This document shows positions 3,406-35,815 of a stretch of DNA of 64,000 nt, piece after piece (position 1 is the stretch's first letter; every line of letters begins with the position of its first letter). The position numbers and the translations under genes are program-made. The notes beneath the pieces were generated by a model. It saw only the letters and a program-made list of their open reading frames with translations, had not been told where the DNA came from and ran no database searches. The stretch comes from Synechococcus sp. (GTDB lineage: Bacteria; Cyanobacteriota; Cyanobacteriia; Thermostichales; PCC-7336), in the NCBI GenBank assembly GCA_051439605.1, contig JBFRWN010000017.1:64001-128000 (forward strand). The letters are read 5' to 3'.

Positions 3406-3434
3406 TTGACAAAGGCAGAGGTAGGTTATATAAA
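3406..3434 (+). promoter_or_regulatory. Sigma70-type promoter candidate upstream of the AT-rich glycosyltransferase-like gene
   Basis: TTGACA-N17-TATAAA. Confidence 0.5.
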
Positions 3435-3620
3435 ATACTAGTCAAAGAGTTTTTAAACTGAAATTTTTAGCCAATCTGAATTGTACGAAACTGATTAGCT
3501 TATTAATTTGATCCACAGAGTTGCAATGAATTCTCAAAATAAATATGTCCCTCTATATCTTTACCATGTACTCTTTTGACCTGTGCTGAGAATTTTGTCA
3601 CCGATTGGAGGGGTATTGAC

Positions 3621-4517
3621 ATGCGAGTAGGACTCATTGTTGTCTGGTTTGGGAAATGGCCACTGTGGTTTCCGGCATTTTTACAATCTTGTAAATTTAA
3701 CCCAGACATTGATTGGCTCATTTTTACTGATTGTCCTGCGCCCCCAGGTTCATCAGTAGAAAATGTCAAATTCATACCCTTTTCTACTGAGCAATTCAAT
3801 AGCTTGGCCTCGGATAATCTAAACCACCCGATAAGTATAAATCGGCCCTATAAAGTATGCGATTTTAGACCTGCATACGGAGTTATTTTTAAAGATTTCC
3901 TGAATGAATATGATTTCTGGGGATATTGTGATATTGACGTAATTTGGGGGGATATCTCTCGCTTTGTGACAAATGAGATGCTATCTAAATATTCGATTAT
4001 AACCAGCAAGAAAGACAAGATAGCAGGCCACTTTAGCTTATTCCGCAATACGCAAGAAGTAAATTCGATATTTAAGAGCTATCCAGGCTATATAGATGTA
4101 CTGACTGATGAAAAGAACCGATGGTTTGACGAAACTCTTCTAACCAAACACCTCCATGAAAATGTTCTTGGAGGTGCTGATAACGATATAGAGATTTATT
4201 GGGAAGGTTTGAAGTTTGCTGATTGGGGGCAACTAGAAAGATATACTAAAGGTTGGAAATGGGAGAATGGCAAGATCCTTGACAGCAGAGGAAAAGAAAG
4301 TTTGTATGCTCACTTCATGACCTGGAAGAAGCTAATGAAAGATATCGATTTTCAATATGAAAATCCACCAAATAAATTTATTATTACGCCTTTGGGTATC
4401 TGGTCGCAAAGACCACTTCTGGTTGAGCGCTTAACACTAGGATTGATTTTTTTGACAAGACGTCCCTGGAGAAAGATAATCATGCTTCTCACAGGTCGCG
4501 ATCCTGCTATGAGCTAA
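3621..4517 (+). CDS. DUF6625-like putative glycosyltransferase (polysaccharide locus type)
   Basis: WFGKWP.WF..FL.SC..NPDIDWLIFTD, YKVCDFRPAYG, YDFWGYCDIDVIWG (DxD); GGAGGGG RBS; AT-rich. Confidence 0.75.
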   Translation: MRVGLIVVWFGKWPLWFPAFLQSCKFNPDIDWLIFTDCPAPPGSSVENVKFIPFSTEQFNSLASDNLNHPISINRPYKVCDFRPAYGVIFKDFLNEYDFWGYCDIDVIWGDISRFVTNEMLSKYSIITSKKDKIAGHFSLFRNTQEVNSIFKSYPGYIDVLTDEKNRWFDETLLTKHLHENVLGGADNDIEIYWEGLKFADWGQLERYTKGWKWENGKILDSRGKESLYAHFMTWKKLMKDIDFQYENPPNKFIITPLGIWSQRPLLVERLTLGLIFLTRRPWRKIIMLLTGRDPAMS

Positions 4518-17825: not shown

Positions 17826-17898
17826 GCCCCCATCGTCTAGAGGCCTAGGACACCTCCCTTTCACGGAGGCGACAGGGGTTCGAATCCCCTTGGGGGTA
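17826..17898 (+). tRNA. trnE: tRNA-Glu (TTC)
   Basis: GCCCCCATCGTCTAGAGGCCTAGGACACCTCCCTTTCACGGAGGCGACAGGGGTTCGAATCCCCTTGGGGGTA; canonical cloverleaf, anticodon TTC. Confidence 0.98.
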
Positions 17899-18300: not shown

Positions 18301-18901
18301 TCAACACAAGGGACTCAAGGCTCTACCACCAGCACTCTTCTTAACATAGGATACTGTCGAACTGACGTACCCAAAAGTAGTTCTAACTTCTTACATGCAT
18401 AAATTGCTACCGATCCTTGATGCCATTTCAAAAAGTGGTCAGTCCTAGTGCACACCAAAAGCAAGGGAGACTGGACTTCCCAGACAATCGTTTACCTGTC
18501 CAGGGCTACCAAAAAGACTTTGTATCTGATCTAAGTGGCATCTTCATTAAAAATATAAATTTCCCCGTACGTACCGCGGCCAATGAAAAAGCCTGAGATC
18601 GGAAGCTCTCCTTTGAAACAAAAGACTGTTTCTGCATCAGAGTTTTTGATTTCATACCTCCAAGAATGTGCAATTTAATAGGTTCATAAGACTTTCACAA
18701 AAGCAATTACTGAGAAGTCAAACCCAAAAAATATCCTTTACAAATTCCTACTAAGTAGAAGCACCGATGAAGCGATCAACACTCTTCATGTAGTTTCATC
18801 TCACGTCAAACTTCTCATAGGCACCTATTAATCTTTTTGCGCTTCACCTCCTGAAGAAGCGTTCCGATTATGGTGCCAGTAATAAAAGTTCCTTAGCAGT
18901 T

Positions 18902-21900
18902 TTGCAATTGCCCACAAAAATAATGTCTATTTCTAAATTCTCTCTCACTTCCGACCAAAATCCTATTCTCCCCTGGTTAATTGAAGACGAACTACAGATA
19001 GGCGGATCGCTCAAGCAGGCTACTCTAGATGGTAATCTCTTCCCTCACAGCGGAAGTAGATTTTCAGTATGTAATACAGCTCTAATTTCCAAAGAAGAGG
19101 ATCTACATGAATTAGAAATCGTTCCTCTAGAGGCAGACGATTTGAAGAATCTATTTCGTTCAAAAGGATCGCATCCATTATTATCAGCCTGTAGTAGGGT
19201 ATCCCCCCTATCAGCAAAGCGATCTGCGAAACCAGATTCACCCACAAGACCGAAATCCAGTAGAAGTAAGCATAGAAAATTTTCAACAGTTCCATCTGAT
19301 ATTTTGAGTAATAGGCATATAGATTATGGAGATCTAGCACTAAGAGAGCAATCCGTTCCAAGCTTGGAAGGAAAGGAATCGGATGATATACAGCTGTTCT
19401 CAGTCATTTCAGAAAAGAAGATTTATTTCAACCATGGAGGAGACTTTGATGGAGATTCCAATGACCTTAGTGACGATACGTTTTTCTATGCTAACAAAGG
19501 ATTCATCATAAACAGTCGTCCGGACTTACCAGTTAAACGAGACGAATACAATAATCCAGTCTTGGACAATCTAGGGCTTCCTATTCTGAGAGATAGAACG
19601 CTGGCAGTCTCGGCAAACTACAGATACATAAAAGCACCCAAAAATCTCTATAGCAATCTAGATACTCCACAGGAGGTGGAAGCCCAAACGGTAAATGTTC
19701 CCAGTTGGCATCAATTGCGAGATTCCAGAATAAGTAACTTTCCAGCCGAGATTGCATCAGTCAAAAGTCTTTCCAGAATCAACTCGAGAACAGATTGGTC
19801 AAAAACAGTACCCAATGGACCTTCTACCTTTGAGATGACATATCTACGAGTGAGAAAGGGAGGGTTAAGGATACCCAATGGAACAGAACTCAGAAATACG
19901 GTAATCATTGTGGATTCCGGGACAATTAACGTTCACAGCAACACCATCTTTGAGAATGTGGTTTTGGTAGCCAACAAAGGCAATGTGAACCTGAAAGAAA
20001 TAGAGGCGAAAGACTTAGAAGTTTATGCCTCCGGCTCGCTCAATGTAAATTCGCGAGCAGTATTTGAGGGTAAAAATGTACTTGCATCGGGTAAGAATAC
20101 TTACTTCAACGGTCGAACGGAAACCGTTGATGCGGATGACTTCTTACAAGTAGTTGCTCAAGGGAATCTAACATTTAATGCCAGTGCGGATATTCGAGCA
20201 GAGTTGCTCACAGCTTCGACTTTCAAGTTCAACCAAAGCTCCACGCTGTACGGTTCGATTGGAGCAAAAAAGAATATTCATTTCAACGGCTATGTCAGGG
20301 TATTTGCGGGTTCGCATGGTGCTTCCGAGTCACCCCCCGAGCCAGATACGGCTGCTCCTCAATTAGAGGTGGGGTTGGCCAACGATACAGGAGCATCGGA
20401 TGGTTTGACCTCTGACCCAATCGTTTCTGGCGTGGTGATAGACGATCGCGAGTTGCAATCGCTAACAGCACAATTTATCGGAACCACTAACTCAACGGCA
20501 GGCGACATCTTGTCCCAAAGAATGGCGGATGGTTCGTTCCAACTGAATCGTACTTCTCTTGAAAGTCTTTTCGGTGGGGAACTCAAGGATACCTCCTACC
20601 AATTGGAGGTAGAGGCAATTGATGCCAGCGGAAATGCTAGCCGAGCAACGCTTGCCTTTACCTTGGATACATCACTCCAACAGCCCAGCTTCGATTTAGC
20701 TCGGGAGTCTGACTCTGAGCCATTTGGCGATCGCCAAACGAGCACCGAACTCGTCACATTGGTGGGTCAAACGGAAGCAGGGGCAACAGTCACCTTGCAG
20801 GAAACCGGGGCAAGTGTTGTTGCCGATGAAACCGGGCTCTTCGAATTTCCCAATGTGGCCTTGGTAGAAGGTATCAATGAGCTGACAACTATCTCTGTAG
20901 ATACTGCTGGGAATCAGTCCAGTTTCATTGGCCTGATCGAAAGATTGCCAGTTAAACCCCCTCTGGTATTGCAGGAAGAAGATGCGTTTACCGTCATCTC
21001 TGAAAAAATCATCTTGGTACCGGATACTTCATCTCTACTGACATTTTCTTTGGAGAATGTTGAGTTTGACAAAACTGACCTGGCTGGAATTAATGATGCC
21101 TTTGAGGTGGCATTGCTCGACAGCAGCGGTCAGTCATTAGTTCACACCATTGGAGAGGGCCACTCGGCGTTCTTCAACATGACAGAAGGGGAAGAAACGA
21201 TTCTTGCGACTGGGGTGACGATCGACGGCCAGACTGTGATGCTGGATTTGGCTGGAGTAGCAGCAGGTACTGAGGCTCGTCTTGTATTTCGCCTGATCAA
21301 CAATGACAGAGATACAGAGAGTTCCGCTGCAATTCAGGGCGTTGAGCTCATTGAAGCTCCAGGCGATCTAGCACCCACCAATGCACCAGCTACAACACTC
21401 TCAACAAACGCTACACCTGTTGACTTTTCAGCGTTAGAGGAGGTGTCGGCCACTGTTCGCACCGACTATCAACAGACGAGTTGGGATGTACCGAACAATC
21501 GGCTGATTGTTGAATTTACCGCCACGAATGTTGGTGGATTCAGTCTGGGCGGGCAACTGATTGCAGCAGTGAGCAATATCAGTGCACTGGATGTGGAACT
21601 GGTGAAGTTTGATGGCTTCACGCCGGAAGGATTACCCTACCTAAACATAACCCAGCTAATCGATGATGGCGTTTGGTCAACAGATGAAGCGACTGCAAAA
21701 AGCCAGCTCATTTTCTCCAATCCCAATCAAGTTCAGTTTGATTTCGACCTGAAGTTTTTCAGTCAGCTCAATTGGTCTCCAGAATTTGTCTCCGCTCCGG
21801 AATTAGAGGTGTTAGCTGGCATTCAGTACGTCTACGATGCCAGCGCCACCGATCTGGATGGTGATGAGCTGACCTATCGATTGTTATCGGGACCAGAGGG

Positions 21901-24900
21901 TTTAGAGATAGATGAAGTAACTGGAGAATTGAGTTGGTTGAGCGAGGCTGAGGATGAACGAACACATGCGATCGCACTAGAGGTGACAGATGGGCGAGGG
22001 GGACGCGACCTGCAACGCTATACCCTCTCGGTGAATAGTGGCACACCCAACCGACCACCCACGATTGTGTCGTTCCCAGCGGTTGAGACCTCAGTGGGAA
22101 CTAACTATCGATACGAAATACTGAGTCGAGATGCAGATGGGGACGAGCTAACCTATCGCCTTGCGGATGGGCCGGATGGTTTGGAGATCGACCCTTCTAC
22201 AGGAGTGCTGAGTTGGACGCCGCTGGCCGAGCAAGTGGGCACGCAGTCAGTACAGGTTCAGGTAGAAGACGGGCGGGGGGGAACTGCCCAACAAACATTT
22301 GAGATTGTGGTTGGGGATGAGATTGGCAATTCTGTTCCGTTTATCTACACCGAACCAATCTCGACGGTGAACGTAGCACAGCAGAGCTACACCTATCGGA
22401 TGGGGGCGGTGGATGCAGATGGGGACGAGCTGACCTATTGGTTGGTTCAGGGACCACAAGGGTTAGAACTCGATCCGGTAAGTGGTGAATTGCGTTGGGA
22501 TAATTTGACGGCTGCTGATGCAGGGTTGTACGAGATTGAAATTCAAGTGTTAGACGGCCGAGGAGGGATTGAGACTCAAGGCTTTACTCTTACTGTCTCC
22601 AATGAAACCCCAGCGAGTATTTTTGGTTCGGTGTTTCACGACCTGGATGGGAATGGGATCGAAGGGGGAGGGGATCCCAATAATTTGGCAAAGCTCGCAA
22701 CTGAGGACCTTGTCTATTATCCCTTTGGAACAACAAAACGAGTTAATAGAAGAACTGTTCCAATTCCTCCCGATGGATTAGCTCCGGGATACTTGTATGT
22801 CACACCAGAGTATTCAGATGCATATACTCTTTATGATTTGGGGCTTGTCCCAGAGATCGCTTCGGCTAACGGAATCGCAATTAGCGAGTTAAATACAGAT
22901 GGTGTTTTGATTGGGAATCATAACTTCTTCAATATTGATATTACCTCGTTTGGTTTAGTTCGTGGGGCCGGAGATCACATTATTGGGCTGAAAGAGAATC
23001 CCGATCCGTATATTCAAGTCGACTATAGAATTAACAGTTTTGGAGATTTTGCATACAATTCTGATGGAATTCTGTTTGTAAATGCTTGGCCAAGAAGCGG
23101 CAAGAAGAATACGATTCTTCAATTTCTTCCAGGGAGTACTAAGCCGGACAAAGAAATAAATCTGACTAGCTTAGGATTCCCATCGTTCGGTCCAGCAAGG
23201 TCCTTATATTTTGTACCAGAAGGTTTCCCTGGAGCAGGAAGATTCAAAGTCATTGATGAAAATGGCAACTCCCATACAGTTATTTTAGAGGCTGATGGAA
23301 ACGGTACTTATGATGCCGTCGAAGTAATACCAGATATAGTTTTCCCTGATGATGAGGGGGATGGATTTACACCTATCCCTCTTGGCTCTCCTCTATTCGA
23401 AATACCTAGTATACTCGCCACTGAAGGTGAAGTTCCTGGATCGGATGTTACTCATCCTGCGTCAGTTTATGAAATAGATACAAATGGCTCTCGGATATAT
23501 TCGACTGGAGAGCAAATCGTCCGATTTAAAATCTTGGATGACTATTCATTCTACAGCCCAAGTTGGGCAGAAACTAATGCAGGCAGAAAAACCACTGGCG
23601 CTACTGTAGACCCCTTGACGGGTGATATTCTTTTTGTTGTAAAATCAGAATTCGCTGACGATCCGTCAAAGACACAAGCTCGGTTATTCTCATTACAAGG
23701 GTTTCAAGCTCCTAATCCAACAGAGCCTGGCTTAGAAGGCTGGACTGTCTATCTCGATGAAAATAAGAATGGACAAAGAGATTTAGAAGAACTCCATACG
23801 ACAACAGATAAGTATGGAAACTATGCCTTTACGGTCGAAGCTGGAGACTATACCGTAGGTTTGGAGTTGCCTTTTGGATGGGTTGTTAACTCAGAAAATC
23901 TACAACAATATGAAGTGAGCTTGGAGTCTGGAGAAGAAATTTCCCGGATTGATTTTGCGGGTATCACACAAACAACTGAGAATTTTTCTCCCAACTTTAT
24001 CAGCACTCCCATAGCAGACGTAAGTACTGACGAACAATTACTCTATCAAGCTATTTCTGAAGATCGTAATGGTGACTCTCTCACCTACAGTGCTGTTGTT
24101 AATCCAAATGGTCTCGCTGTCTCTCCCAATGGATTAGTCTCTTGGCGGCCTACTGTCGATCAAGTGGGAACTCACGACGTTATTTTAAAAGTCGATGATG
24201 GTCGTGGAGGAATCGATCTACAGAGCTTTCAAATAGGAGTTGAACTCGGCAATCAAAGCCCTATTTTTGAGGCAGTTCCACAGGAGCCGATTATTGTTCC
24301 TGTTGGACAAAAATTTAGCTTTGATTTTGACGCCTTCGATCCGGATGGTGATGCAATTACCTATCGATTAAGTGGGACGTCTTATGGTGGCCCGTTGATC
24401 GATCCCAATACGGGAGAACTGACTTGGTACGCTCAATTTAATACATTTCTTCCGGGCGAAACATCACAATATCGCACTTTTAATATTGTGGCTGACGATG
24501 GGAATGGAGGTCAAGGTTTTACACAACTTTCATTACTAGCCGTTGAACCGACGCTAGAAAATCAAGTTCCAGAGATTACCTCAACTGCAAACGGTATTGC
24601 AGCGCTCGATCGCCCTTATTTCTATTCTGTTACTGCGAGAGATCTTGATGGAGATTCCCTCACCTATCACTTGCTGGATTCACCTGAGGGAATGGTTATC
24701 GATCCAAATGGGCTGATTGCTTGGCAACCTGATGCTGAATACTTCGGAGATCGCACCGTAACGGTTGAGGTCAGCGACGATCGCGGTGGGACAGCCCGGC
24801 AAACCTTCAACTTGAATGTCGTCAGCCAGCTCAACAACTCTGCCCCGGCAATTGTGAGCAACCCTGCCTTAGCTGCAACAATCGGACGGCAGTATGCATA

Positions 24901-27900
24901 CGACTTGGAAGCGATCGATCCCGATGGAGATCTGGTGGCTTTGGGTCTCGATTCAGGCCCAATCGGCATGAGATTCGATGCAGAAAACGGCAAATTGCTG
25001 TGGACACCGACAGCCGAGCAACTGGGTCCCCATCAAGTGTCTATCCGAGCGAGCGATCCCAATGGCGCGTCGACCTCGCAAACCTTTGAAATCAACGTAC
25101 GGGGTATCAACGTAGCCCCCATCATTTCCTCCACTCCAAGCACTCAGGCTTCTGTCGGTAATCCCTACCGGTATCAGGTGAAGGCGATTGATATAGAGGG
25201 AGACACTCTCTCCTACCGTCTCACCGATGCTCCAGAGGGAGCCCAAATTGACGAGCTTACCGGACTCGTTGAATGGATTCCCGACTCAGTTGGTGCATCC
25301 GCGATCGCAGTCGAAGTGAGCGATAGGTTTGGAGCCAGCACCGACCACAGTTTCTATGTATTCACAGCTGCAGAAGCGATCAATCGGGCCCCTGCGATTA
25401 CTTCTGCACCTACATTTGACGCGACTCCTGGAGAGACCTATAGCTATCAAGTTACTGCTAGCGATCCCGACCCCGAGGACAGCTTTACCTTCCAACTGTT
25501 GAATGGTTCGGCTGGTATGGAGATCGACTCCACCACCGGTCTACTGACTTGGGCTCCGACTGCTGACGATATCGGGAGAGTGTCCGTCACTGTAGGGGCT
25601 GTGGATGAATCGGGAGCGATCGGATCCCAACGCTTCAACCTGGAGGTGTCCACCAACACGCCGCCGGAAATCCTGTCGGAGCCAAAGACAGCAGCGGCGA
25701 TTGGCGAAGAGTATCAATACGATCTGCGCGCAAGGGATGTTGATGGAGATTCTCTCTCCTACGAACTGGTAAGTGCTCCTGAGGGCATGACTGTTGACAA
25801 TCTAGGCCGCATCCGCTGGACTCCAGATTCTGTTGATGCAGGCTCCGTGACAGTGGAGGTGGCCGTTATAGATTCACGCGATGCGCGAGTGAATCAGCAG
25901 TTCGAGCTGGAGGTGGCGATCGATGAAGTTGCGCCCCAAGTGGAAGTTCTAGCTTCAAATACTCGGGTGGGACTTGGCGAGAGCATCTCTTTGCTGGCGG
26001 ATGCCTTCGACAACGTCGGCGTGTCCTCGCTTTCGCTGACAATTAACGGAGTTGAAGTTCCCCTCGATTGGCAGAGTTTCTACCAATTTGAGCCAGATGA
26101 GGTAGGCGATTTTGTGGCGATCGCCACTGCCACAGATGCTGCTGGCAATACCTCAACAGCAAAAACCCTCTTTACAGTCTTTGACTCCAGCGACGTTGAA
26201 GCTCCTCAACTGGAGCTGCTGACCGAACAACTGGCTGAATTCATTACTGCCCCCACCGAACTCATCGGTACCGTTGCAGATGACAACCTGGACTACTACA
26301 GCCTCTCGGTTGCTCCTATTGGCACAGATGCTTTTACCGAGATCTTCCGCAGCTCTGAACTCGTCACAGACGGAATATTGGGCACGTTCGACCCGACGCT
26401 ACTTCAGAACAATGCCTATACTCTGCGGCTGGAGGCGATCGATCTAACTGGCAATACCAATACCGTCGAACAGACTGTCAACGTTTCTGGAGGATTGAAG
26501 CTTGGGAACTTCCAGGTATCGTTCACCGATCTCGCGATTCCGGTGTCTGGATTTTCGATCGCGGTCACTAGAACTTACGACTCTCTGAACTCCAATGCCA
26601 CTGATGACTTTGGCTACGGCTGGAGGATGGAGTTTAGGGATACCGATCTGCGTACTAGCCTCGGTCGAGATGAAAGTTACGAGCAATTTGGCATCCGAAC
26701 GCAAGCCTTTGATGCCAATACGAGGGTTTTTATCACCTTGCCAGGAGGCGAGAGACAAGCGTTTACATTTGCACCAGAGGTCGATTCGATTTCAGCTTAT
26801 TTCCCGTCATTGGGACAAAGCGATCCAACGCTATACCGACCAAGATTCAAGGCAGATGCAGGTGTGACTGTCACCCTTGAAGTTGAAGATGTTCGACTGG
26901 CACGTACAGCTGATGGATCGTTCGTTGGGCTTAATGGCAGCAGTTACAATCCGGAAGATGCCGCATCGGGCTTTGGCGGGTACTACAAACTTACGACCCG
27001 AGAAGGTTTGGTCTACCGCATCGATGCGGCGACTGGAGACTTGGAGTCAGTCGAGAATCGCTACGGCGATCGCCTGACATTCAGCGATGACAGTATCGTT
27101 AGCTCTGCAGGAAAAACCGTTACCTTCGAACGAGATGCCAAAGGACGCATTTCTGCGTTAGTGGATCCTGAAGGGAACCGCGTTCGCTACGAATACGATG
27201 CTGCGGGGGACCTGATTGCCGTCACCGATCGCGAAAATAACACCACCCAATTTGGATACAGCGACAACCGTTCCCACTTCTTAGACACCATTACCGATCC
27301 GTTGGGACGACAGGGCATTCGCTCAGATTACGACGAGAGCGGACGCCTCTCGAGGATCTTCGATGCCACTGGAGAAGCAATTTCCCTCACCTACGATCCT
27401 GAGAATTCCATCGAAGTACTGACGGATGTATATGGCGCATCCACGCTGAACGAGTACAACGATCGCGGCAACATCATTCGACGCATCGATGCTCTTGGCA
27501 ATCAGCAGTTTTACGAATACGACAACAACAACAATCGAGTTCGCGAAACTTTCGTGACAGATGAGACCGGACCGCAGGGAAGTACCACAACTGCTACCCA
27601 TCGTCCCGATCGCAAGCCCCTAACCGTAACCGATGTAACTGGTGCAACGCAGAAGTTCTTCTACGATGCCAACGGTAACGTAACGACTGTTCTCAGTCCT
27701 CTGGGCGAACAAATTCGCTATACCCACGATGAACTGGGCAATATTCTGTCTACAACCGATGCCGCAGGCCGAGTTCTACAAACGACCTACGATCGCTACG
27801 GACGACCGATTACCTTCACTGACTCTGACGGCAATACAAGCACTCTAGAATACGATTCCTTCGGTAACATTACCCGCACCACCGACTTTTTCAGCAACCC

Positions 27901-30900
27901 AACCACCTACACCTACGACATTCGCGGACAACGGCTGACAGAAACCCACACCGTAACGAACGCTAGCGGCGTAGCTGAAGAGCTGACGACCCGGTGGACT
28001 TACGACAGCGAGGGTCGCGTCACTGCCACGGAAGATCCCGCTGGGAATATCACCAGCTTTGAATATGACGCTGTCGGCAACATGACAGCAATTACCGATG
28101 CCAAATTGCAGCGGACGGAGTTGGTCTACAACGATCGCGATCGGCTGGTGGAGACAATTTACGCTGACGCAACGCCAGAAGATTTTACGGACAATCCTCG
28201 CAGCATCTCTCTCTACGACCGCGGCGGTCGCCTGCGTGGCGAGATCGATGCCAATGGTGAGGTGGTTCATTACGCATACGATGTCTTGGGCCGGGTAACC
28301 GAGGTAATTTATCCCGGGGAGACGGAGTCGCTGGAGCAATTGCTGGCAGCGATCGTCCCTGGGGAAACTCTGGAGTCTGTGGATTGGACGAAGGTCGTTT
28401 ATCCGGACGAAACACCCGAGTACCTGAAGGATAATCCTCGAACATCCAAGGAGTACTTTAGCGATGGCAAGGTCAAGGCCCAGACCGATCGCATGGGGAA
28501 TCGGACGCAATATACCTATAACGCGAGCGAGCGGTTGGTCGAGACTATCTTTGCGGACGACACTCCAGACGATCTGGCTGACAATTTGCGCAGCATTACC
28601 CTTTACGATCACCGCGGTCGGATACGCGCTCAAATCGATGCAGGTGGTCACATCGTTCACTACTCGTACGATGCGGCCGGTCGCATCATTGAGGAGATTT
28701 ATCCAAAAGAGTCCGACAGTCTGGAGCAGTTTCTGGCAGCGATCGCCCCTGGTGAAACCCTTGAATCGGTTGATTGGGCGGAGGTTGTCTATCCAGATGA
28801 AGCCCCCGAGTACTTGAAGGATAATCCCCGAGTCGCGATGGAATATTTCAGCAACGACCGGGTCAAGTCCCGGACCGATGCCCTGGGTAACAGGACGGAA
28901 TACCGCTACGACAAGTTAGGTCGACTTACGGAGACTATCCTGGCAGACGATACCCCCGACACCCTGGCAGACAATGCTCGAGTTCGGGTTGAATACAACG
29001 AGATCGCTCAGGTGGTTAAACAGATCGATCCGCTGGGCCAAGAGACTCAATTTACCTACAACAAAGCGGGAGATCTCGTTCGGACCACCTATAACGACGG
29101 GACCTCGGGAACCAATACATTCAACGAACTCGGTCAGCAAACCTCTACCACCGACCAAGAAGGTAAGACCACCCAATATGATTACGATCCCTTGGGCCGT
29201 CTTAAGGGGATTGTCGATGCTTTGGATGGCCGCACCGACTACACCTACGATCCGCTGGGATTGCTTGTCGGGAGCACCGATGCCAATCAGATTTCCACTC
29301 GCTACGAGTACGACAGCCTCGGACGACGCACTGGAATTGAGTTACCCGAAGGCGAGCGGGCCAGTTACGGTTACGACGCCAACGGCAACCTGACCTCGTA
29401 TACCGACTTTAACGGCGACACCACCACCTACGAGTACGATGCCCTCAATCGCTTAGTCACCGCCGACTACACCACCAATGCTGACGTCTACTACACCTAC
29501 ACCCCCACCGGCAAAATCGAGACCCTGACCGACGGTCGGGGGATCACTCGGTACGAGTACGATTACCGCGATCGCCTGATTTCCCGCACCGATCCCGACG
29601 GCCCCTACATACGTCCCGGCGGTCCCACCATCGAGTACACCTACGACAATGCCAGCAACCGCACATCCGTCATCACTCCCCACAGCACGACGACGTATAC
29701 GTTTGACGCCCAGAATCGTTTAGAAACCATCACCGATCCTGATGACGGTGTCACCACCTACCACTACGATCTCGCTGGACGCCTTATTCAAACCGAACTG
29801 CCCAACAGTACCGAAGAACGAAGGAGTTACGACAGTCTCAATCGCCTCACCAGCATCACCACCGTTCGATTTGATCCCACCACTGGCCAAGAGACGGTAA
29901 TTGCGGGCTATGAGTACACCCTCGACAAAGTTGGCCATCGTCTACAAATTACCGATCACGACGGACGTATCACCCGTTACGTTTACGATGATCTCTATCG
30001 CCTCGTTCAAGAGCGTATTACCGACCCGAACGACCCGATTCATGACGGACGCACCATCAGCTACACCTATGACAGAATGGGGAATCGACTCACCCGCCAA
30101 GATTCACTGGAGGGGGTGACCACTTACACCTACAACGACAACTATCAGCTACTAGCAGAAGTAAGCTCGGTTGATGGAGAAATAAACAACACCATCACTT
30201 ATAGCTATGACAGCAATGGCAATTTGCTCAGTCGGGCTGGCAGCGATGGCAGTAGCACTCTGTTTGAGTGGAATGATGCCAATCGTCTGTCTCGGGTTGT
30301 ATTACCCAATGGCGACGAGATTTTCTACGTCTATGACAGCGCAGGCATTCAGGTAAGCAGCAGTATCAATGGCGAGACGACCACGTATGTGGTGGATAAG
30401 AATCGGCCATATGCGCAGGTGCTTGAGTCCCTGAATAGCGATGGTCTCATAGAGTTCTCTGTCTACGGTTTGGATTTGATTGCCAAACTGCAGGGGGATG
30501 AGACCTCGGTTTTCCATACGGATGGGTTAGGTAGTACTCGTGTGGTAACAGATGGCGAGGGGAACGTTCAGCAGAGCTTCGATTACTTAGCGTTCGGTGA
30601 ATTGTTGGGGGCTAAGGCTGCAGAGCAGGTGGACAACTTGTTTGCAGGCGAGCAGTTTGAGCAGGAGTTAGGACTCTATTACTTGCGCCAGCGGTATTAT
30701 GACCCCAACACTGGAAGATTTATCAGTCGCGATGCGTTTGAAGGGTTTATCACCGATCCTCTATCTCAAAACCGCTACCTCTACGCTCACGCCAATCCAG
30801 TCACCTATACCGATCCCAGCGGCTACTTCAGCATTGGTAACGTCAGTGCTTCGAAGGCTATCAAGTCTACTCTGAGCGGCCTTGCCAGCCGAAAATTTTT

Positions 30901-31822
30901 AGTCGGTGCTGCTTTGGGAGGGGGGTCGCAGCTCGCCTCAGATTATGCCAGAGGGGAACGGTCTTCGATAGGGAGCGTCCTGTTTTCTGCGGCAGCGGGT
31001 GGTTTGGGCTTCGTCTTTGGCCCAACACTTGTAAATGCCATGTTGCAAAATGCCCTGGGAACGTGGCTGCTTTCGGGGCTCTTGGCAAAAGGGCTGGCGG
31101 ACTCTTACGAAACAATTCGTTCTGCATTTTCGAGTGGCGATCCCTCCCGAAAATTAGCGGGTTTACTATCAGTTGGCTTGGATCTGGGATTGTTTGATGG
31201 GATCGCTAATCCGCGGGCATTGCTGCGTGGTGCTCTTGATGGAGGGGCAATCGGGTTCAGGAAACAATTCAGCAAGCTATCCGACAACATTCGTGGGCTT
31301 GCCGATAATTTTGGTGGGTTTGCTGATAACTTACGCAGCAAAAATAATGGTTTAAGTGGAGCTGATGACGCCCTAGATCCTGGCAGCTTAGACACGATTG
31401 GTGGAAAGGCTAATAGCGCATCTCCGTTCAGCACGGTTGAAGAATTAGCAGAACTAGGTGTTCAAGCAAATCGGGTTCGTCCCGGAACAAATGGGAAAGT
31501 AGCGCTCATAGGTCGTGGCATGAGTCAAATAGGTGAAAAAGCAGATATTTTAAGGGACAAAGGCTTTGACGTCGAGATTTTTGACAATACTCAGATTCCA
31601 AATACTGTTCTTCAAGGATTCAACGATGCTATGAAGCTTGGGGCAAATGCAGGTGATCTTAAGAAAATTGAACTGTTCGAGCTAAATCGAGAGTGGGCCC
31701 AGAAATTAAAAGACCAAGGTTATACTGTTATTGATACTGGCGATCCACTTGGACGATTCAATGAAAGTGGTTTTAGCATTTTCTATACACTTGAAAAATC
31801 AATTTTATTCCCAGGAGATTAG
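18902..31822 (+). CDS. Giant RHS/YD-repeat polymorphic toxin with cadherin/putative-Ig repeats (4306 aa)
   Basis: 10 N..P.I.S.P...Y.Y...A.D.DGD.L.Y.L...P.G..ID..TG...W.P repeats; DUF6531-like RTYDS..FGYGW; many YD repeats; RHS core FAGEQFE..LGLYYLRQRYYDP.TGRF.SRD...N.Y.YA.ANPV...DPSG; divergent C-terminus. Start TTG 18902 or ATG 18923. Confidence 0.93.
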   Translation: MQLPTKIMSISKFSLTSDQNPILPWLIEDELQIGGSLKQATLDGNLFPHSGSRFSVCNTALISKEEDLHELEIVPLEADDLKNLFRSKGSHPLLSACSRVSPLSAKRSAKPDSPTRPKSSRSKHRKFSTVPSDILSNRHIDYGDLALREQSVPSLEGKESDDIQLFSVISEKKIYFNHGGDFDGDSNDLSDDTFFYANKGFIINSRPDLPVKRDEYNNPVLDNLGLPILRDRTLAVSANYRYIKAPKNLYSNLDTPQEVEAQTVNVPSWHQLRDSRISNFPAEIASVKSLSRINSRTDWSKTVPNGPSTFEMTYLRVRKGGLRIPNGTELRNTVIIVDSGTINVHSNTIFENVVLVANKGNVNLKEIEAKDLEVYASGSLNVNSRAVFEGKNVLASGKNTYFNGRTETVDADDFLQVVAQGNLTFNASADIRAELLTASTFKFNQSSTLYGSIGAKKNIHFNGYVRVFAGSHGASESPPEPDTAAPQLEVGLANDTGASDGLTSDPIVSGVVIDDRELQSLTAQFIGTTNSTAGDILSQRMADGSFQLNRTSLESLFGGELKDTSYQLEVEAIDASGNASRATLAFTLDTSLQQPSFDLARESDSEPFGDRQTSTELVTLVGQTEAGATVTLQETGASVVADETGLFEFPNVALVEGINELTTISVDTAGNQSSFIGLIERLPVKPPLVLQEEDAFTVISEKIILVPDTSSLLTFSLENVEFDKTDLAGINDAFEVALLDSSGQSLVHTIGEGHSAFFNMTEGEETILATGVTIDGQTVMLDLAGVAAGTEARLVFRLINNDRDTESSAAIQGVELIEAPGDLAPTNAPATTLSTNATPVDFSALEEVSATVRTDYQQTSWDVPNNRLIVEFTATNVGGFSLGGQLIAAVSNISALDVELVKFDGFTPEGLPYLNITQLIDDGVWSTDEATAKSQLIFSNPNQVQFDFDLKFFSQLNWSPEFVSAPELEVLAGIQYVYDASATDLDGDELTYRLLSGPEGLEIDEVTGELSWLSEAEDERTHAIALEVTDGRGGRDLQRYTLSVNSGTPNRPPTIVSFPAVETSVGTNYRYEILSRDADGDELTYRLADGPDGLEIDPSTGVLSWTPLAEQVGTQSVQVQVEDGRGGTAQQTFEIVVGDEIGNSVPFIYTEPISTVNVAQQSYTYRMGAVDADGDELTYWLVQGPQGLELDPVSGELRWDNLTAADAGLYEIEIQVLDGRGGIETQGFTLTVSNETPASIFGSVFHDLDGNGIEGGGDPNNLAKLATEDLVYYPFGTTKRVNRRTVPIPPDGLAPGYLYVTPEYSDAYTLYDLGLVPEIASANGIAISELNTDGVLIGNHNFFNIDITSFGLVRGAGDHIIGLKENPDPYIQVDYRINSFGDFAYNSDGILFVNAWPRSGKKNTILQFLPGSTKPDKEINLTSLGFPSFGPARSLYFVPEGFPGAGRFKVIDENGNSHTVILEADGNGTYDAVEVIPDIVFPDDEGDGFTPIPLGSPLFEIPSILATEGEVPGSDVTHPASVYEIDTNGSRIYSTGEQIVRFKILDDYSFYSPSWAETNAGRKTTGATVDPLTGDILFVVKSEFADDPSKTQARLFSLQGFQAPNPTEPGLEGWTVYLDENKNGQRDLEELHTTTDKYGNYAFTVEAGDYTVGLELPFGWVVNSENLQQYEVSLESGEEISRIDFAGITQTTENFSPNFISTPIADVSTDEQLLYQAISEDRNGDSLTYSAVVNPNGLAVSPNGLVSWRPTVDQVGTHDVILKVDDGRGGIDLQSFQIGVELGNQSPIFEAVPQEPIIVPVGQKFSFDFDAFDPDGDAITYRLSGTSYGGPLIDPNTGELTWYAQFNTFLPGETSQYRTFNIVADDGNGGQGFTQLSLLAVEPTLENQVPEITSTANGIAALDRPYFYSVTARDLDGDSLTYHLLDSPEGMVIDPNGLIAWQPDAEYFGDRTVTVEVSDDRGGTARQTFNLNVVSQLNNSAPAIVSNPALAATIGRQYAYDLEAIDPDGDLVALGLDSGPIGMRFDAENGKLLWTPTAEQLGPHQVSIRASDPNGASTSQTFEINVRGINVAPIISSTPSTQASVGNPYRYQVKAIDIEGDTLSYRLTDAPEGAQIDELTGLVEWIPDSVGASAIAVEVSDRFGASTDHSFYVFTAAEAINRAPAITSAPTFDATPGETYSYQVTASDPDPEDSFTFQLLNGSAGMEIDSTTGLLTWAPTADDIGRVSVTVGAVDESGAIGSQRFNLEVSTNTPPEILSEPKTAAAIGEEYQYDLRARDVDGDSLSYELVSAPEGMTVDNLGRIRWTPDSVDAGSVTVEVAVIDSRDARVNQQFELEVAIDEVAPQVEVLASNTRVGLGESISLLADAFDNVGVSSLSLTINGVEVPLDWQSFYQFEPDEVGDFVAIATATDAAGNTSTAKTLFTVFDSSDVEAPQLELLTEQLAEFITAPTELIGTVADDNLDYYSLSVAPIGTDAFTEIFRSSELVTDGILGTFDPTLLQNNAYTLRLEAIDLTGNTNTVEQTVNVSGGLKLGNFQVSFTDLAIPVSGFSIAVTRTYDSLNSNATDDFGYGWRMEFRDTDLRTSLGRDESYEQFGIRTQAFDANTRVFITLPGGERQAFTFAPEVDSISAYFPSLGQSDPTLYRPRFKADAGVTVTLEVEDVRLARTADGSFVGLNGSSYNPEDAASGFGGYYKLTTREGLVYRIDAATGDLESVENRYGDRLTFSDDSIVSSAGKTVTFERDAKGRISALVDPEGNRVRYEYDAAGDLIAVTDRENNTTQFGYSDNRSHFLDTITDPLGRQGIRSDYDESGRLSRIFDATGEAISLTYDPENSIEVLTDVYGASTLNEYNDRGNIIRRIDALGNQQFYEYDNNNNRVRETFVTDETGPQGSTTTATHRPDRKPLTVTDVTGATQKFFYDANGNVTTVLSPLGEQIRYTHDELGNILSTTDAAGRVLQTTYDRYGRPITFTDSDGNTSTLEYDSFGNITRTTDFFSNPTTYTYDIRGQRLTETHTVTNASGVAEELTTRWTYDSEGRVTATEDPAGNITSFEYDAVGNMTAITDAKLQRTELVYNDRDRLVETIYADATPEDFTDNPRSISLYDRGGRLRGEIDANGEVVHYAYDVLGRVTEVIYPGETESLEQLLAAIVPGETLESVDWTKVVYPDETPEYLKDNPRTSKEYFSDGKVKAQTDRMGNRTQYTYNASERLVETIFADDTPDDLADNLRSITLYDHRGRIRAQIDAGGHIVHYSYDAAGRIIEEIYPKESDSLEQFLAAIAPGETLESVDWAEVVYPDEAPEYLKDNPRVAMEYFSNDRVKSRTDALGNRTEYRYDKLGRLTETILADDTPDTLADNARVRVEYNEIAQVVKQIDPLGQETQFTYNKAGDLVRTTYNDGTSGTNTFNELGQQTSTTDQEGKTTQYDYDPLGRLKGIVDALDGRTDYTYDPLGLLVGSTDANQISTRYEYDSLGRRTGIELPEGERASYGYDANGNLTSYTDFNGDTTTYEYDALNRLVTADYTTNADVYYTYTPTGKIETLTDGRGITRYEYDYRDRLISRTDPDGPYIRPGGPTIEYTYDNASNRTSVITPHSTTTYTFDAQNRLETITDPDDGVTTYHYDLAGRLIQTELPNSTEERRSYDSLNRLTSITTVRFDPTTGQETVIAGYEYTLDKVGHRLQITDHDGRITRYVYDDLYRLVQERITDPNDPIHDGRTISYTYDRMGNRLTRQDSLEGVTTYTYNDNYQLLAEVSSVDGEINNTITYSYDSNGNLLSRAGSDGSSTLFEWNDANRLSRVVLPNGDEIFYVYDSAGIQVSSSINGETTTYVVDKNRPYAQVLESLNSDGLIEFSVYGLDLIAKLQGDETSVFHTDGLGSTRVVTDGEGNVQQSFDYLAFGELLGAKAAEQVDNLFAGEQFEQELGLYYLRQRYYDPNTGRFISRDAFEGFITDPLSQNRYLYAHANPVTYTDPSGYFSIGNVSASKAIKSTLSGLASRKFLVGAALGGGSQLASDYARGERSSIGSVLFSAAAGGLGFVFGPTLVNAMLQNALGTWLLSGLLAKGLADSYETIRSAFSSGDPSRKLAGLLSVGLDLGLFDGIANPRALLRGALDGGAIGFRKQFSKLSDNIRGLADNFGGFADNLRSKNNGLSGADDALDPGSLDTIGGKANSASPFSTVEELAELGVQANRVRPGTNGKVALIGRGMSQIGEKADILRDKGFDVEIFDNTQIPNTVLQGFNDAMKLGANAGDLKKIELFELNREWAQKLKDQGYTVIDTGDPLGRFNESGFSIFYTLEKSILFPGD
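28142..28990 (+). repeat. 390-nt (130-aa) internal tandem repeat in the RHS region, 2 full copies plus a partial third
   Basis: RL.ETI.AD.TP units start at 28142, 28532 and 28922; SLEQ.LAAI.PGETLESVDW..VVYPDE.PEYLKDNPR present twice. Confidence 0.9.
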
Positions 31823-31824
31823 AT

Positions 31825-32274
31825 ATGCAGTGGAGTGCAGATGATTTTGAGAAGGAAATTAGAGCCTGTAATTTTTTCCGAGAGAAATCCTATAAATTTG
31901 TAGAAAGAGAAGTTGACAAACCAGGAACCAAGTTCGAACGCTATATTTTTCGTCTTGAAAATTCTAGTGCAGATCGGTCAATCAAGATAACCTTTTTTCC
32001 ATCTCAATTCCCAGGAAAACCATCTATTTCCAGTGTTTATATTTCAAATTTATCGACAGGAGAATGGTTCGATATTGAACACTACATAAAGCAGTATCAT
32101 GGCATTGAAATCAATCCTGAGGGGTTCCGATATAGCAGTTATTCTGGGACTTTTGAAGAAAAAGTACGCGGTTTCCTGGACTTTTCAACCAGACTATTGG
32201 AGAAATATGCCAAGCCAACTTTGCAAGGTACCGAATGGCCTGAGGTCGAGTTTGACTGGAAAGGATATAAATAG
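31825..32274 (+). CDS. Putative cognate immunity protein
   Basis: 149-aa AT-rich ORF starting 2 nt after the RHS stop codon, the usual toxin-immunity arrangement. Confidence 0.7.
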   Translation: MQWSADDFEKEIRACNFFREKSYKFVEREVDKPGTKFERYIFRLENSSADRSIKITFFPSQFPGKPSISSVYISNLSTGEWFDIEHYIKQYHGIEINPEGFRYSSYSGTFEEKVRGFLDFSTRLLEKYAKPTLQGTEWPEVEFDWKGYK

Positions 32275-33084: not shown

Positions 33085-33158
33085 GGGGCTGTGGCACAGT
33101 TGGATAGCGCGAGCGCCTCCTAAGCGCTAGGTCGTGGGTTCGAATCCCGCCAGCCCCG
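33085..33158 (+). tRNA. trnR: tRNA-Arg (CCT)
   Basis: GGGGCTG/CAGCCCC acceptor stem, AGCGC-CTCCTAA-GCGCT anticodon arm, GTTCGAATC T-loop; one A-C mismatch in the D stem. Confidence 0.93.
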
Positions 33159-33658
33159 CTACAATAATCAAGTTTAGATCCAACCCATCCTTGGCTTCCG
33201 GTTTTTGCTGCTTTCCAATGCAATTGTCAACCATTAACCTTTATTGCGCATCTTTAACGATCCCCATTTAGGCAACCACTATTTTTGGGTTTCCTCCACC
33301 ATAGTTGGTTGGCAAGTGCTAGGGCGTTCTGACTATCAGTCTCCTAGGCGGGCGCCTGGATTGCTCTCAACTAGAACGGTCTGGAGGTTTCTACCTCAGA
33401 TGTTTTAATATCGCCCAGGTCATCAACCACAAGTAAGTCATTGCGATCGAGCTTTGTGAGGGTGACTGGCAGCTAGAGTTGCCGTTGAGCCTGCCTGAGG
33501 TGTTGCATTTAAGGCGGGGGAAGTCCTACACAGATAAGAATTCAAAAGTTTGGAAATTTTGGCTGGCTTGCCGCTGCTGCGCTGTTTTTGTTAGATGAAG
33601 CGTTAGTTGCAGCTGAATGTCTGTCTCTAGTCCGATGTTTTGAGTTGTTTGGAAACCT

Positions 33659-35815
33659 GTGAGTTTTTTCTCTTTTCAGCGATTCAGATTGCAGTGGGGA
33701 CTGCGCTTGTTGCCGGTTCGGTTAATGCTATCCATGGCAGGGCTAGCGATCTCATCTATCACCAGCGTGACGTTTCTCACGATTGACCGCGAGCGTCGAG
33801 AATTTAAGGCCGAGCTTGAAGGACAGGCAGAGCTATTGCTCAACAGTTTGGAACTGGCTGCGGTCACGTTGCAAGTGCAAGAGGAGATGCAAGCGCTCGA
33901 TTCTTTACTCCTGCCATCAACCATAGATGGGAACGATGCTTTGAGAGCAGCCCTTTACACCGTTGATGGCAGGGTCTTTGCGGGAGTTAGTGGAGGGATG
34001 AAAACAGTTTCTCCAGAAATACTAAGAAGCTTGCACCAGCGCACCACTACGCAATTTTATTGGCAATCCGATCATCTGCTCGCCGCTCGACGGGTAACCC
34101 CCCAAAATGTAGCTGGCCTGGATCGAAGCGCTAGGTCTGAACTTGCAGGCCAAATTGCTGTTGTTGAGCTGTCGACAGTCATGCTCAAGCAAGATATCCA
34201 GCGGACCTGGGTCAATGCTTTAGAGGTGGCTCTGGGGGCAGGTGCCGTGAGTACGCTGCTGGCTTTGATGTTGAGCCGCACCATTACCGGTCCCCTTAAG
34301 CAAATGGTTACGGTGACCGAGCGAATTGCCTCTGGACAGTTTTCGGAACGACTACCAGAGCGGAAGGGTGGCCAAGAACTATCGACGGTATCCGGTGCCT
34401 TCAACCGCATGAGCGAGCAATTGCAGTTGCTCGTTGCCCGACAGCGGGCCTTGGTACGCTACTCCTTAGACGCTATTGTGGTGCTCGATAGACAAGGCAA
34501 AGTTCTTGAATATAACCCTGCTGCTGAACGGATGTTTTCTCTGTCAGACGATGGGGTTATCAGCCAGCCTTTTTTTCAATTTGCTATTGACTATCCATGG
34601 CGTGAGCAGCTAGAAGCAGATGTATTGTCCGTTCAGGAGCAAAATGCCAGCTGTTTGGTAGGGCGCTGGCAAGAGGTAGAGGCTCTACGGGCTAATGGCT
34701 GTCGGTTTTGGGCTGAGGTGTCAGTAACCAACATCACAGTTCGCGACGATTCCTTATTTACCGTTACCTTGCGCGATATTACGGAGCGTCGTCAGGCCGC
34801 TACTCGCTTGCAGCAAAGCGAGGAACGATTCCGACAGATTATCCATCGGGCCCCTATTGGCATTGCGTTGGCTGATGCGGCAAGCGGCATTATCCAACAG
34901 GTTAATCCCGCTCTGTGCAATATTGTTGGCGTTGAAGAGGCAGACCTTATGGGCTGTTCCTTCGAGCAGTTGGGAATTGCCTTACCAAGGATCGGCATTC
35001 CCCCCTATGCCACCGGCGACCCACAGGAGGTTAACTCTGCGAATGTCCTGCCCGGCGATCGCTTGCCAGCTGTGCTACCCAATCAGGCTGCAGACCCTCC
35101 CTCTAGAGAGGCCAACCCTCCACCTCCTATGGGTGAGGCCGATCGGACAGAGCAGCGGTATCGATGTAGGAACGGTCAAGAGATTTGGCTGGGGATGACC
35201 GTCACGGTTCTCGTCGGGATAGGTCAGGATCCCGTTACCTTAGTCATGCTAGAGGACATTACCGAACGCAAACAAGTTGAACTCCAGCTGCGCCACGAGG
35301 CGCTGCACGACTCTCTAACGGGCCTCCCCAATCGCACCCTGTTGCTCAAGCGACTCAGCCGCGCCTGCGAACGCTTCCACTCTTTTAAAACTGGCCATGA
35401 TTTTGCTGTTCTGTTTTTAGATTGCGATCGGTTTAAAGAAATCAACGATTTGTTGGGGCACGAAGTTGGCGATCGATTGCTGATTGCTTTGGCACATCGA
35501 TTAGAAAGTTGCGTGAGGGAAGGAGATACTGTTGCCCGATTGGGTGGCGATGAATTTACTGTATTGCTGGAACATATCCGCGAGGCAGATGAAGCGCAGC
35601 GAGTGGCTAATCGGATGCTCCAATCTCTAAGATTGCCATTTGACTTAGGAGATCGTCAGGTTGTGGCCACAGTGAGTATTGGTATTGTTAACAGCCACAT
35701 TCGGTATCGCGACCCCGAAACGATTCTCAAAGATGCGGATGCTGCTATGTATAAAGCAAAGGCTCTAGGTCGCAAACAACAAACACTGTACGGCGCAATC
35801 TCAGAGTCAGGCTGA
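33659..35815 (+). CDS. Membrane diguanylate cyclase (TM-sensor-TM-HAMP-PAS-PAS-GGDEF)
   Basis: HAMP (ITGPLKQM...AFNRM), two PAS/PAC ending DITER, HDSLTGLPNR, RLGGDEF with REGD I-site; no EAL domain. Confidence 0.92.
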   Translation: MSFFSFQRFRLQWGLRLLPVRLMLSMAGLAISSITSVTFLTIDRERREFKAELEGQAELLLNSLELAAVTLQVQEEMQALDSLLLPSTIDGNDALRAALYTVDGRVFAGVSGGMKTVSPEILRSLHQRTTTQFYWQSDHLLAARRVTPQNVAGLDRSARSELAGQIAVVELSTVMLKQDIQRTWVNALEVALGAGAVSTLLALMLSRTITGPLKQMVTVTERIASGQFSERLPERKGGQELSTVSGAFNRMSEQLQLLVARQRALVRYSLDAIVVLDRQGKVLEYNPAAERMFSLSDDGVISQPFFQFAIDYPWREQLEADVLSVQEQNASCLVGRWQEVEALRANGCRFWAEVSVTNITVRDDSLFTVTLRDITERRQAATRLQQSEERFRQIIHRAPIGIALADAASGIIQQVNPALCNIVGVEEADLMGCSFEQLGIALPRIGIPPYATGDPQEVNSANVLPGDRLPAVLPNQAADPPSREANPPPPMGEADRTEQRYRCRNGQEIWLGMTVTVLVGIGQDPVTLVMLEDITERKQVELQLRHEALHDSLTGLPNRTLLLKRLSRACERFHSFKTGHDFAVLFLDCDRFKEINDLLGHEVGDRLLIALAHRLESCVREGDTVARLGGDEFTVLLEHIREADEAQRVANRMLQSLRLPFDLGDRQVVATVSIGIVNSHIRYRDPETILKDADAAMYKAKALGRKQQTLYGAISESG

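Follow-up and report, generated by a model that had tools for sequence, protein, structure and literature searches.

The tips of polymorphic toxins have proved to be a source of new enzymes and tools, among them NADases, deaminases and ADP-ribosyltransferases. We analysed a 64-kb stretch of DNA from Synechococcus sp. (contig JBFRWN010000017.1, positions 64,001 to 128,000; hereafter the window, with positions counted from its first letter), in which a giant Rhs/YD-repeat gene ends in a C-terminal tip outside all Pfam toxin families and is followed directly by a small gene, the two very probably forming the toxin–immunity cassette of a polymorphic toxin. Among the closest described systems are the NAD(P)+ glycohydrolase tips Tne1–Tne5, which (PMC13285283, PMC10539506) have in common with this locus the Rhs shell, the PxxxxDPxG motif, the swappable tip and the downstream immunity gene, and which deplete cytoplasmic NAD(P)+, an activity that is only predicted for the window tip. 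The Tne tips have ADP-ribosyltransferase-like folds (PMC13285283), whereas the window tip is modelled as Rossmann-like.

Other described systems resemble the tip itself. Tox-ARC/CD38-like toxins, exemplified by ARCtox of Pantoea ananatis (PANA_2924, 9ro8), are likewise C-terminal tips of polymorphic toxins, on type VI secretion system (T6SS) and other scaffolds, and ARCtox (PMC12605009, PMC3482391) is, like the window domain, an α/β protein with an adjacent immunity gene (131 versus 133 residues). TIR NADases (PF13676/PF01582; SARM1, C. elegans TIR-1, SPARTA TIR-APAZ and bacterial effectors) have the same order of elements as the window model, namely strand, helix, strand, helices, strand and Glu-bearing helix, with an invariant glutamate on the final helix, and they share with the window family the motif S-x-aromatic-x-x-x-E; a TIR domain, however, has a five-stranded parallel sheet (βA–βE, with αA–αE), whereas the chain of the window model ends after helix 120–129. 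Nucleoside 2′-deoxyribosyltransferases (NDTs; PF05014; 8rh3, 7m5h, 7o62) are Rossmann-like and carry a glutamate nucleophile on the helix that follows strand three, as predicted here, but their signature residues (Tyr on β1, DxG...E) are not reproduced in the window domain, and they are housekeeping or salvage oligomers and not secreted toxins, in contrast to the probable toxin tip described below.

The giant gene encodes 4,306 residues with 24 RHS-repeat stretches (Pfam PF05593, E 6.9e-133), together with many He_PIG, Big_9 and Cadherin_5-like domains (Pfam) in the N-terminal two thirds of the protein. The Rhs core ends in the sequence PVTYTDPSGY, which fits the PxxxxDPxG[L] motif of PMC8636562, described there as the border (PxxxxDPxGL) between the Rhs shell and the variable toxin and as a site of autocleavage by an aspartyl protease. 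We infer that PVTYTDPSGY is an autoproteolysis site, from which a 332-residue C-terminal fragment would be freed; the first codon past DPSG is at nt 30824. The giant open reading frame (ORF) stops with TAG at 31820–31822, and the next ORF begins with ATG at 31825. The features of the locus are as follows.

18902..31822, + strand: giant Rhs/YD-repeat gene, a 4,306-residue ORF that carries the tip (from the ORF list, translation and Pfam)
30797..30826, + strand: boundary motif PVTYTDPSGY, which closes the Rhs core, with DPSG at nt 30812–30823 (from the sequence)
30824..31387, + strand: constant pre-toxin linker with Gly/Ala-rich hydrophobic helices and xDN heptads (from GC content and the copies in genome G510)
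30896..31093, + strand: hydrophobic Gly/Ala-rich helices, FLVGAALGGG ... VLFSAAAGGLGFVFGPTLV ... LLSGLLAKG (from Kyte–Doolittle values and sequence)
31277..31339, + strand: xDN heptads LSDNIRG LADNFGG FADNLRS, three units of 7 residues (from sequence and TRF)
31421..31819, + strand: probable toxin domain of an unnamed family, 133 residues, small Rossmann-like α/β, predicted N-glycosidase (from HMMER and AlphaFold2)
31514..31777, + strand: near-invariant polar or aromatic residues besides E125, namely R32, E52, N89, W92, D105 and S119, forming the predicted pocket
31793..31795, + strand: E125 (ORF residue 4298), predicted catalytic glutamate, conserved in 150/151
31825..32274, + strand: candidate immunity gene, 149 residues, 2 nt past the TAG of the toxin, with GGAG upstream (from the ORF and its homologues)

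The known part of this locus is a textbook Rhs polymorphic toxin, with an RHS shell, a boundary motif, exchange of tips and scaffolds in both directions and a co-occurring small gene downstream. New are the widespread toxin and immunity families, which are nameless in the libraries searched, the predicted minimal TIR/NDT/CD38 core and the reusable hydrophobic linker.

The 133-residue domain had no significant match, by sequence or by profile, in Pfam, NCBIfam or PADLOC or among PDB sequences. All that came up for the tip, the immunity protein and the family members were generic matches below threshold (LytR_C, UPF0180 and an oxidoreductase β-α-β unit), and no described Tox- or Ntox- family (Zhang et al. 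2012) or ADP-ribosyltransferase-like Tne NADase was detected on the tip, on 84 long carriers or on 62 short members. When 1.84 billion cluster representatives (clusters at 50% identity) were searched exhaustively with HMMER, a large family nevertheless emerged, with 261 homologous clusters at E≤1e-3, of which 84 reach ≤1e-10 and 2 reach ≤1e-30; it is distributed across nine or more bacterial lineages and multiple delivery systems. We examined 152 proteins, comprising 150 of the 261 matches, the window's own protein and one further carrier, and in 150 of them the domain ends at most 10 residues from the C-terminus. A word search of the literature retrieved no description of either the toxin or the immunity family, which may be described under another name, and nothing related to them was found in the literature on DUF6861, one of the domains that precede the tip.

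Ninety carriers are at least 260 residues long, and 84 of these were scanned with Pfam (two had already been characterised and four were left out for size). No Pfam family was present in 56, while the remaining 28 have families that always lie upstream of the tip: RHS in three, VgrG with PAAR in two, PAAR alone in one, PT-TG in eight (seven over the cut-off), PT-HINT in one, DUF6861 in four, DUF6862 in one, PG_binding_1 in four, LysM in one and fn3 in four. One more PT-TG carrier and one more RHS carrier were found beyond the 84, the latter in a Leptolyngbya metagenome-assembled genome (MAG) that supplies the closest homologues of both tip (66% identical) and immunity protein. The cluster names of ten carriers were uninformative. 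In its own phylum, the domain was present in 1/401 sampled genomes, that of the window itself. This distribution bears the mark of a polymorphic-toxin C-terminal domain gained by horizontal transfer. Such a transfer is argued by the rarity of the domain in the phylum, by the failure to find it in the same-genus genome G510 and by the low GC at third codon positions (GC3) of the toxin domain and the immunity gene.

The composition of the locus changes within the tip. The Rhs body has a GC content of 0.496 (GC3 0.491), and the linker at 30824–31420 stays close to it (GC 0.516, GC3 0.472); the terminal domain at 31421–31819 has a GC of 0.404 (GC3 0.286) and the downstream ORF at 31825–32271 a GC of 0.383 (GC3 0.342), with the lowest 400-nt GC of the entire window at 31701. 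Further low-GC stretches (400-nt GC ≤ 0.40) are found at 3201–4500 and 18401–19600, one of them taking in the start of the giant ORF plus the DNA just upstream.

The protein encoded downstream is likely, from sequence and gene order, to be the immunity protein of the toxin. It has eight close homologues at 50–61% identity, one of which is encoded on the same 3,670-nt contig of the Leptolyngbya MAG as the Rhs protein with the 66%-identical tip. Scanning one genome per species with a 12-row alignment of the toxin domain as query, we found the domain in 13 loci, from Acidobacteriota, Gallionellaceae, Bacteroidota, Zooshikella, Bdellovibrionales, Elusimicrobia, Microscilla/Cytophagales, Lysobacterales and Bacteriovorax. 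An ORF lies directly downstream in 13/13, often with a 4-nt overlap with the stop codon or a few nucleotides away. Eleven of these ORFs are complete (148–177 residues), whereas the contig end truncates the other two; the ORFs align with the 149-residue protein of the window and have a common C-terminal motif, G..W....FDWxGYK. A hidden Markov model of the immunity family, built from the window protein's close homologues alone and run with the database size Z set to 1e6, matched 10/13 loci at E<0.01 and two more weakly, one truncated ORF escaping detection. An immunity profile search yielded 12 matches; three have a source name, in each case 'hypothetical protein', and the rest are nameless. No Pfam family was found in the window's immunity protein or the downstream ORFs, and the window's protein also had no match in NCBIfam or PADLOC; a cluster-atlas comparison placed it among unnamed clusters, with the label 'putative DUF4304' (0.93) as a lead only, and hmmscan gave no DUF4304 match. 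By eye, the immunity proteins have no signal peptide, which fits a cytoplasmic target.

A Candidatus Angelobacter MAG carries two toxin–immunity cassettes about 2.3 kb apart on one contig (L003 and L005). The frame of the second toxin copy ends at locus position 2304, within a match running to 2493, so that this copy looks, from its sequence, like a degraded orphan toxin that keeps an intact immunity gene. A similar break occurs at a further locus (L011).

The AlphaFold2 model of the domain, obtained with a 62-sequence alignment, is confident (predicted local distance difference test (pLDDT) 92.5, predicted template modelling score 0.86); prediction from the single sequence reached a pLDDT of 44 and was not usable. 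DSSP assigns strands at residues 18–20, 27–30, 50–51 and 102–105 and helices at 34–46, 61–72, 77–81, 84–98 and 120–129, which gives the order strand 18–20, strand 27–30, helix 34–46, strand 50–51, three helices, strand 102–105 and helix 120–129. As modelled, the domain is a small Rossmann-like sandwich of three parallel strands plus one N-terminal strand.

Conservation, counted over the occupied rows of the 152 proteins, is highest at G22 (143/144), G31 (146/146), R32 (nt 31514; 137/146), M34 (143/148), E52 (nt 31574; 125/150), N89 (nt 31685; 145/152), W92 (nt 31694; 151/152), D105 (nt 31733; 143/152), G107 (142/152), S119 (nt 31775; 150/152), Y122 (141/152) and E125. In the model, the conserved residues sit on the loops after β1, β2 and β3 and on the last two helices, where folds of this kind usually have their active-site edge. 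An earlier reading of the letters alone (the sequence-only reading) had described an AT-richer terminal domain of about 130 residues with an α/β fold, had picked out GKVALIGRGM, NREWAQKLKDQGYTVIDTGDP and SIFYTLEK as its motifs with R, N, D, S and E as candidate catalytic residues, and had proposed an enzymatic toxin of an uncharacterised family. The base composition and the model bear out the first of these points. The three motifs correspond to the conserved stretches of an actual family, in which R32, N89, D105, S119 and E125 are near-invariant. The family is nameless in the libraries searched, it recurs at the C-terminus of RHS, VgrG-PAAR, PAAR, PT-TG and PT-HINT proteins, and a conserved partner gene follows it. 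Of the outcomes that would have spoken against that reading, neither of those open to sequence analysis was observed: no confident match to a described toxin family emerged, and homologues on other scaffolds were found.

Despite the lack of a named family, the domain bears a weak resemblance to N-glycosidases of the TIR/NDT/CD38-like kind. Among the top 50 rows of an unbiased VIA structural search with the model, 24 are TIR (15), SEFIR (3) or NDT (5) domains or the CD38-like Pantoea T6SS toxin (1). These families make up a small share of the Rossmann-like proteins in the PDB. We counted backwards from the residue at which each VIA range ends, which is range arithmetic and not a residue-level alignment; on this count E125 falls on the following catalytic glutamates.

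9hq0 and 9l2g: SARM1 E642
8p2m: TIR-1 E788
8u72 and 8qlp (the latter BabSPARTA): SPARTA TIR Glu77
8rh3: CtNDT E88
7m5h: EfPDT Glu86
7o62: DpNDT Glu100
9ro8: ARCtox E356

Except for 8qlp, the catalytic glutamate numbers of these entries are those given in PMC7282519, PMC10121217, PMC9097488, PMC10913048, PMC12372993 and PMC12605009. According to the last of these sources, the ARCtox cleft is lined by two tryptophans and two glutamates (W273, E299, W323 and E356), and the spacing of 33 residues between W92 and E125 equals that between W323, the second catalytic tryptophan, and E356. Furthermore, the family motif S119-x-F-Y-x-x-E125 parallels the TIR_2 consensus S-x-Y-C-x-x-E, in which the glutamate is invariant (reference alignment), and among named clusters one of ADP-ribosyl cyclase comes closest in language-model features (0.81), a lead only. 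We read the domain as working like TIR, NDT and CD38 enzymes, a reading of the model that we consider evenly poised, and do not assign it to any of those families; as its substrate, NAD(P)+ would be the likeliest, since TIR and ARC, the toxins among the enzymes of this fold, act on NAD(P)+. The sequence-only reading, which could not match the domain to HNH, deaminase, ART or colicin-type motifs, is qualified by this resemblance, with E125 placed on catalytic glutamates by range arithmetic.

A number of observations weigh against such chemistry. The top VIA rows are a hydrogenase NAD/FAD-type domain (3lrx/3lyu), and anticodon-binding domains of HisRS and Glu racemases are also among the rows. 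The combination of AlphaFold and Foldseek that had been suggested as a check delivered a confident model but no Foldseek match at E≤1e-3 in PDB or BFVD. Probabilities from hhalign were 0.8% against seven reference NDTs and, for the 62-sequence alignment, 4.4% against 12 TIR_2 domains, and neither the tip nor the 62 members matched PF02267 (ADP-ribosyl cyclase, E≤1) or the TIR or NDT models. The equivalence of E125 assumes that the last 6–8 aligned positions are gapless; the 4c6t_A row gives residue 83 in place of RPS4 E88 (chain A may not be RPS4), and the Roq1 row (7jlx) would give residue 88, off by two from what we take to be E86. Strands four and five, present in TIR and NDT, are missing from the model, and TIR and NDT active sites require oligomers. 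PG_binding_1 on four carriers and LysM on one could point to a target in the envelope.

The region that follows DPSG consists of two modules with separate histories, a linker and a swapped toxin domain, as seen in their composition and in the sister genome G510; their junction lies near 31390–31420. The sequence-only reading had located Gly/Ala-rich hydrophobic helices and a triplet of xDN heptads in the first module, and both are there. FLVGAALGGG begins at 30896 and SAAAGGLGFVFGP at 30986, and the strongest hydrophobic 19-mer, VLFSAAAGGLGFVFGPTLV, at 30977–31033, has a Kyte–Doolittle value of 1.74; the remaining linker helices, at about 1.0, are amphipathic and not clearly transmembrane. The heptads at 31277–31339 are a genuine 21-bp tandem duplication (TRF: 31281–31330, period 21, 2.4 copies, 75% matches). 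What did not survive is the treatment of helices and domain as one toxin tip, since the hydrophobic and xDN segment is a constant region of the Rhs lineage, with the GC content of the Rhs body and with other toxins behind it in G510.

This emerged from a search of 201 same-class genomes with the Rhs core end plus linker (30512–31420, 303 residues) as query. G510 has four copies of the linker at 65–70% identity, reaching query residue 257–292 (about nt 31387), with the same hydrophobic helices and a diverged counterpart of the xDN heptads (GLSDNIARQGGDLVDNIIGNILDGGRNAADNALDG). Three of them precede other tips.

G510:C1 ~3556000–3598200 (L058): linker, then PT-HINT and tip A, then a 163-residue ORF
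G510:C1 ~3556000–3598200 (L049): linker, then PT-HINT and a different tip B, then a 135-residue ORF
G510:C1 3467000–3469800 (L060): linker, then tip C without a Pfam family, then a 123-residue ORF
G510:C1 ~3556000–3598200 (L059): linker interrupted by an ISL3-family transposase gene

G510 thus holds a ~40-kb array of Rhs C-terminal cassettes that share the linker and differ in tips and downstream ORFs. These copies identify the linker as a constant pre-toxin region, and its reuse with other tips, together with the occurrence of the toxin domain on unrelated linkers, identifies toxin domain and downstream gene as a swapped cassette. In the four other Rhs carriers of the toxin domain, no sequence conservation with the window linker was found; two of their unrelated linkers are again Gly/Ala-rich and hydrophobic. 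We also considered the linker as part of the toxin family and rejected this, given its lack of conservation in those carriers and its conservation with other toxins in G510.

The linker matches no Pfam family, PT-TG included. Like PT-TG (PF14449) and PT-HINT (PF07591), it is constant between carrier and toxin, and PT-TG is likewise Gly-rich and hydrophobic; the linker differs from those pre-toxin modules in lying after the Rhs cleavage motif, and it precedes PT-HINT in G510. T6SS effectors also carry hydrophobic helices, such as prePAAR transmembrane domains. Across the family, a transmembrane-like 19-mer (Kyte–Doolittle ≥1.6) occurs at most 200 residues upstream of the domain in 45 of the 95 proteins with at least 100 residues upstream of it (41/95 when the first 35 residues are excluded), and between 200 and 400 residues upstream in 0/35, whereas 12 of those 35 proteins have one in the nearer interval. 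The clustering of these 19-mers near the domain and the reuse of the linker with other tips fit a translocation-type role, in which the linker would bring cargo that acts in the cytoplasm to or across the inner membrane of the target. From its place behind the cleavage motif, the linker would be expected to exit the Rhs shell together with the toxin. Its reuse with different tips makes the crossing of the target inner membrane by Rhs cargo directly testable.

Of the explanations that compete with an N-glycosidase, the most serious, if still improbable, is a different nucleotide-binding enzyme, such as a kinase, a pyrophosphatase, a nucleotidyl- or ADP-ribosyl-type transferase or a (p)ppApp-like synthetase, in which the Rossmann-like β1–loop–α1–β2 unit would hold the nucleotide. 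The family motif in that loop is, however, IGRxM, with GxGxxG not conserved, neither a P-loop nor a Mg-binding DxD-type motif can be seen, and W92, S119 and E125 are placed on the last two helices, where TIR, NDT and ARC enzymes have their catalytic helix. A nuclease (RNase or DNase) or tRNA-directed toxin would be in keeping with the small α/β fold, on which many Rhs and CdiA tips are built, and HisRS domains do appear in the structural search; those alignments span only about half of the domain, however, the conserved columns have no His pair, PD-(D/E)xK, HNH or PIN-like acidic quartet, and no Pfam nuclease or Ntox/Tox family matched, so that we regard this explanation as distinctly less probable than the preceding one.

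Both of these leave the toxic activity in the terminal domain. It could instead reside in the Gly/Ala helices, acting as a membrane-depolarising pore former with the α/β domain as a receptor-binding or regulatory accessory, and in favour of this the window linker has one transmembrane-like helix (Kyte–Doolittle ≥1.6) and such 19-mers concentrate, as counted above, within 200 residues of the domain. Yet the same linker stands before three unrelated tips in G510, each with its own, different downstream ORF, from which it follows that specific immunity tracks the tip and not the linker. In addition, the immunity family co-varies with the α/β domain across phyla, inspection by eye reveals no membrane segment in the immunity protein and the α/β domain has an enzyme-like set of invariant residues, which together make a pore former very improbable. 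Least credible of all is that there is no toxin and that the domain is a C-terminal adhesion or structural part of some surface protein, the gene next to it being unrelated. The adhesin-like Ig/cadherin repeats of the giant protein and the failure to find a T6SS sheath gene in its own genome speak for this; the occurrence of the domain on VgrG-PAAR, PAAR, PT-TG and PT-HINT scaffolds, its C-terminal position in nearly all proteins examined in company with a family of small downstream ORFs, its location behind the Rhs cleavage motif and a GC content foreign to the host gene speak against it.

Returning to the N-glycosidase, we see an even chance that the domain, as modelled, is a minimal TIR/NDT/CD38-like enzyme that depletes NAD(P)+ or a related nucleotide and is neutralised by the 149-residue protein. 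In the mechanism that we propose, autoproteolysis after DPSG would free the 332-residue fragment from the Rhs shell, and the hydrophobic helices would help it to reach or cross the inner membrane of the target. The domain would then bind a nucleotide at the C-terminal edge of the three parallel strands, through the loops GRxM, VExFD and DxGNP, and E125, near W92, S119 and D105, would cleave the bond between ribose and base like the equivalent glutamate of TIR, NDT and ADP-ribosyl cyclase, so that NAD(P)+ or a related nucleotide would be depleted in the cytoplasm of the target cell. In the producer, the immunity protein would block the pocket. More speculatively, and with rather more doubt than confidence, the locus may be the founding example of a cross-phylum toxin–immunity family with the smallest known catalytic TIR/NDT/CD38 N-glycosidase, of three strands and one invariant glutamate on the terminal helix, which would kill by destroying NAD(P)+ or another nucleotide and, in cyanobacterial Rhs proteins, would be delivered behind a reusable hydrophobic self-translocation linker suited to any tip. 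If the predicted chemistry holds, a minimal catalytic core would be added to the TIR/NDT/CD38 class, showing how little fold nucleotide cleavage needs, and the conserved immunity family would provide a ready-made specific inhibitor. Should the predicted chemistry fail, the pair would still define a new toxin–immunity family.

In the host genome (99.98% complete), we found no match to the TssC/VipB sheath and only two gpD-like hub matches, of which one passed the Pfam threshold. The same genome encodes a second Rhs protein (L046, G000:C9:7849-11136), an open frame of 2,672 residues whose core end is 35% identical to that of the window protein and whose unrelated tip has a strongly basic tail but lacks a hydrophobic linker. 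Elsewhere the genome contains seven TIR_2 matches and a single bona fide NDT gene, none of them related in sequence to the tip of the window protein. Within the window, the giant Rhs gene and its cassette are flanked by tRNA-Glu(ttc) at 17826–17898 and tRNA-Arg(cct) at 33085–33159, a placement between two tRNA genes that suggests an island-like layout. Downstream of tRNA-Arg, an ORF of 718 residues at 33659–35815 contains the GGDEF motif RLGGDEF and PAS-like sequence (translation, by eye), and presumably encodes an ordinary diguanylate cyclase.

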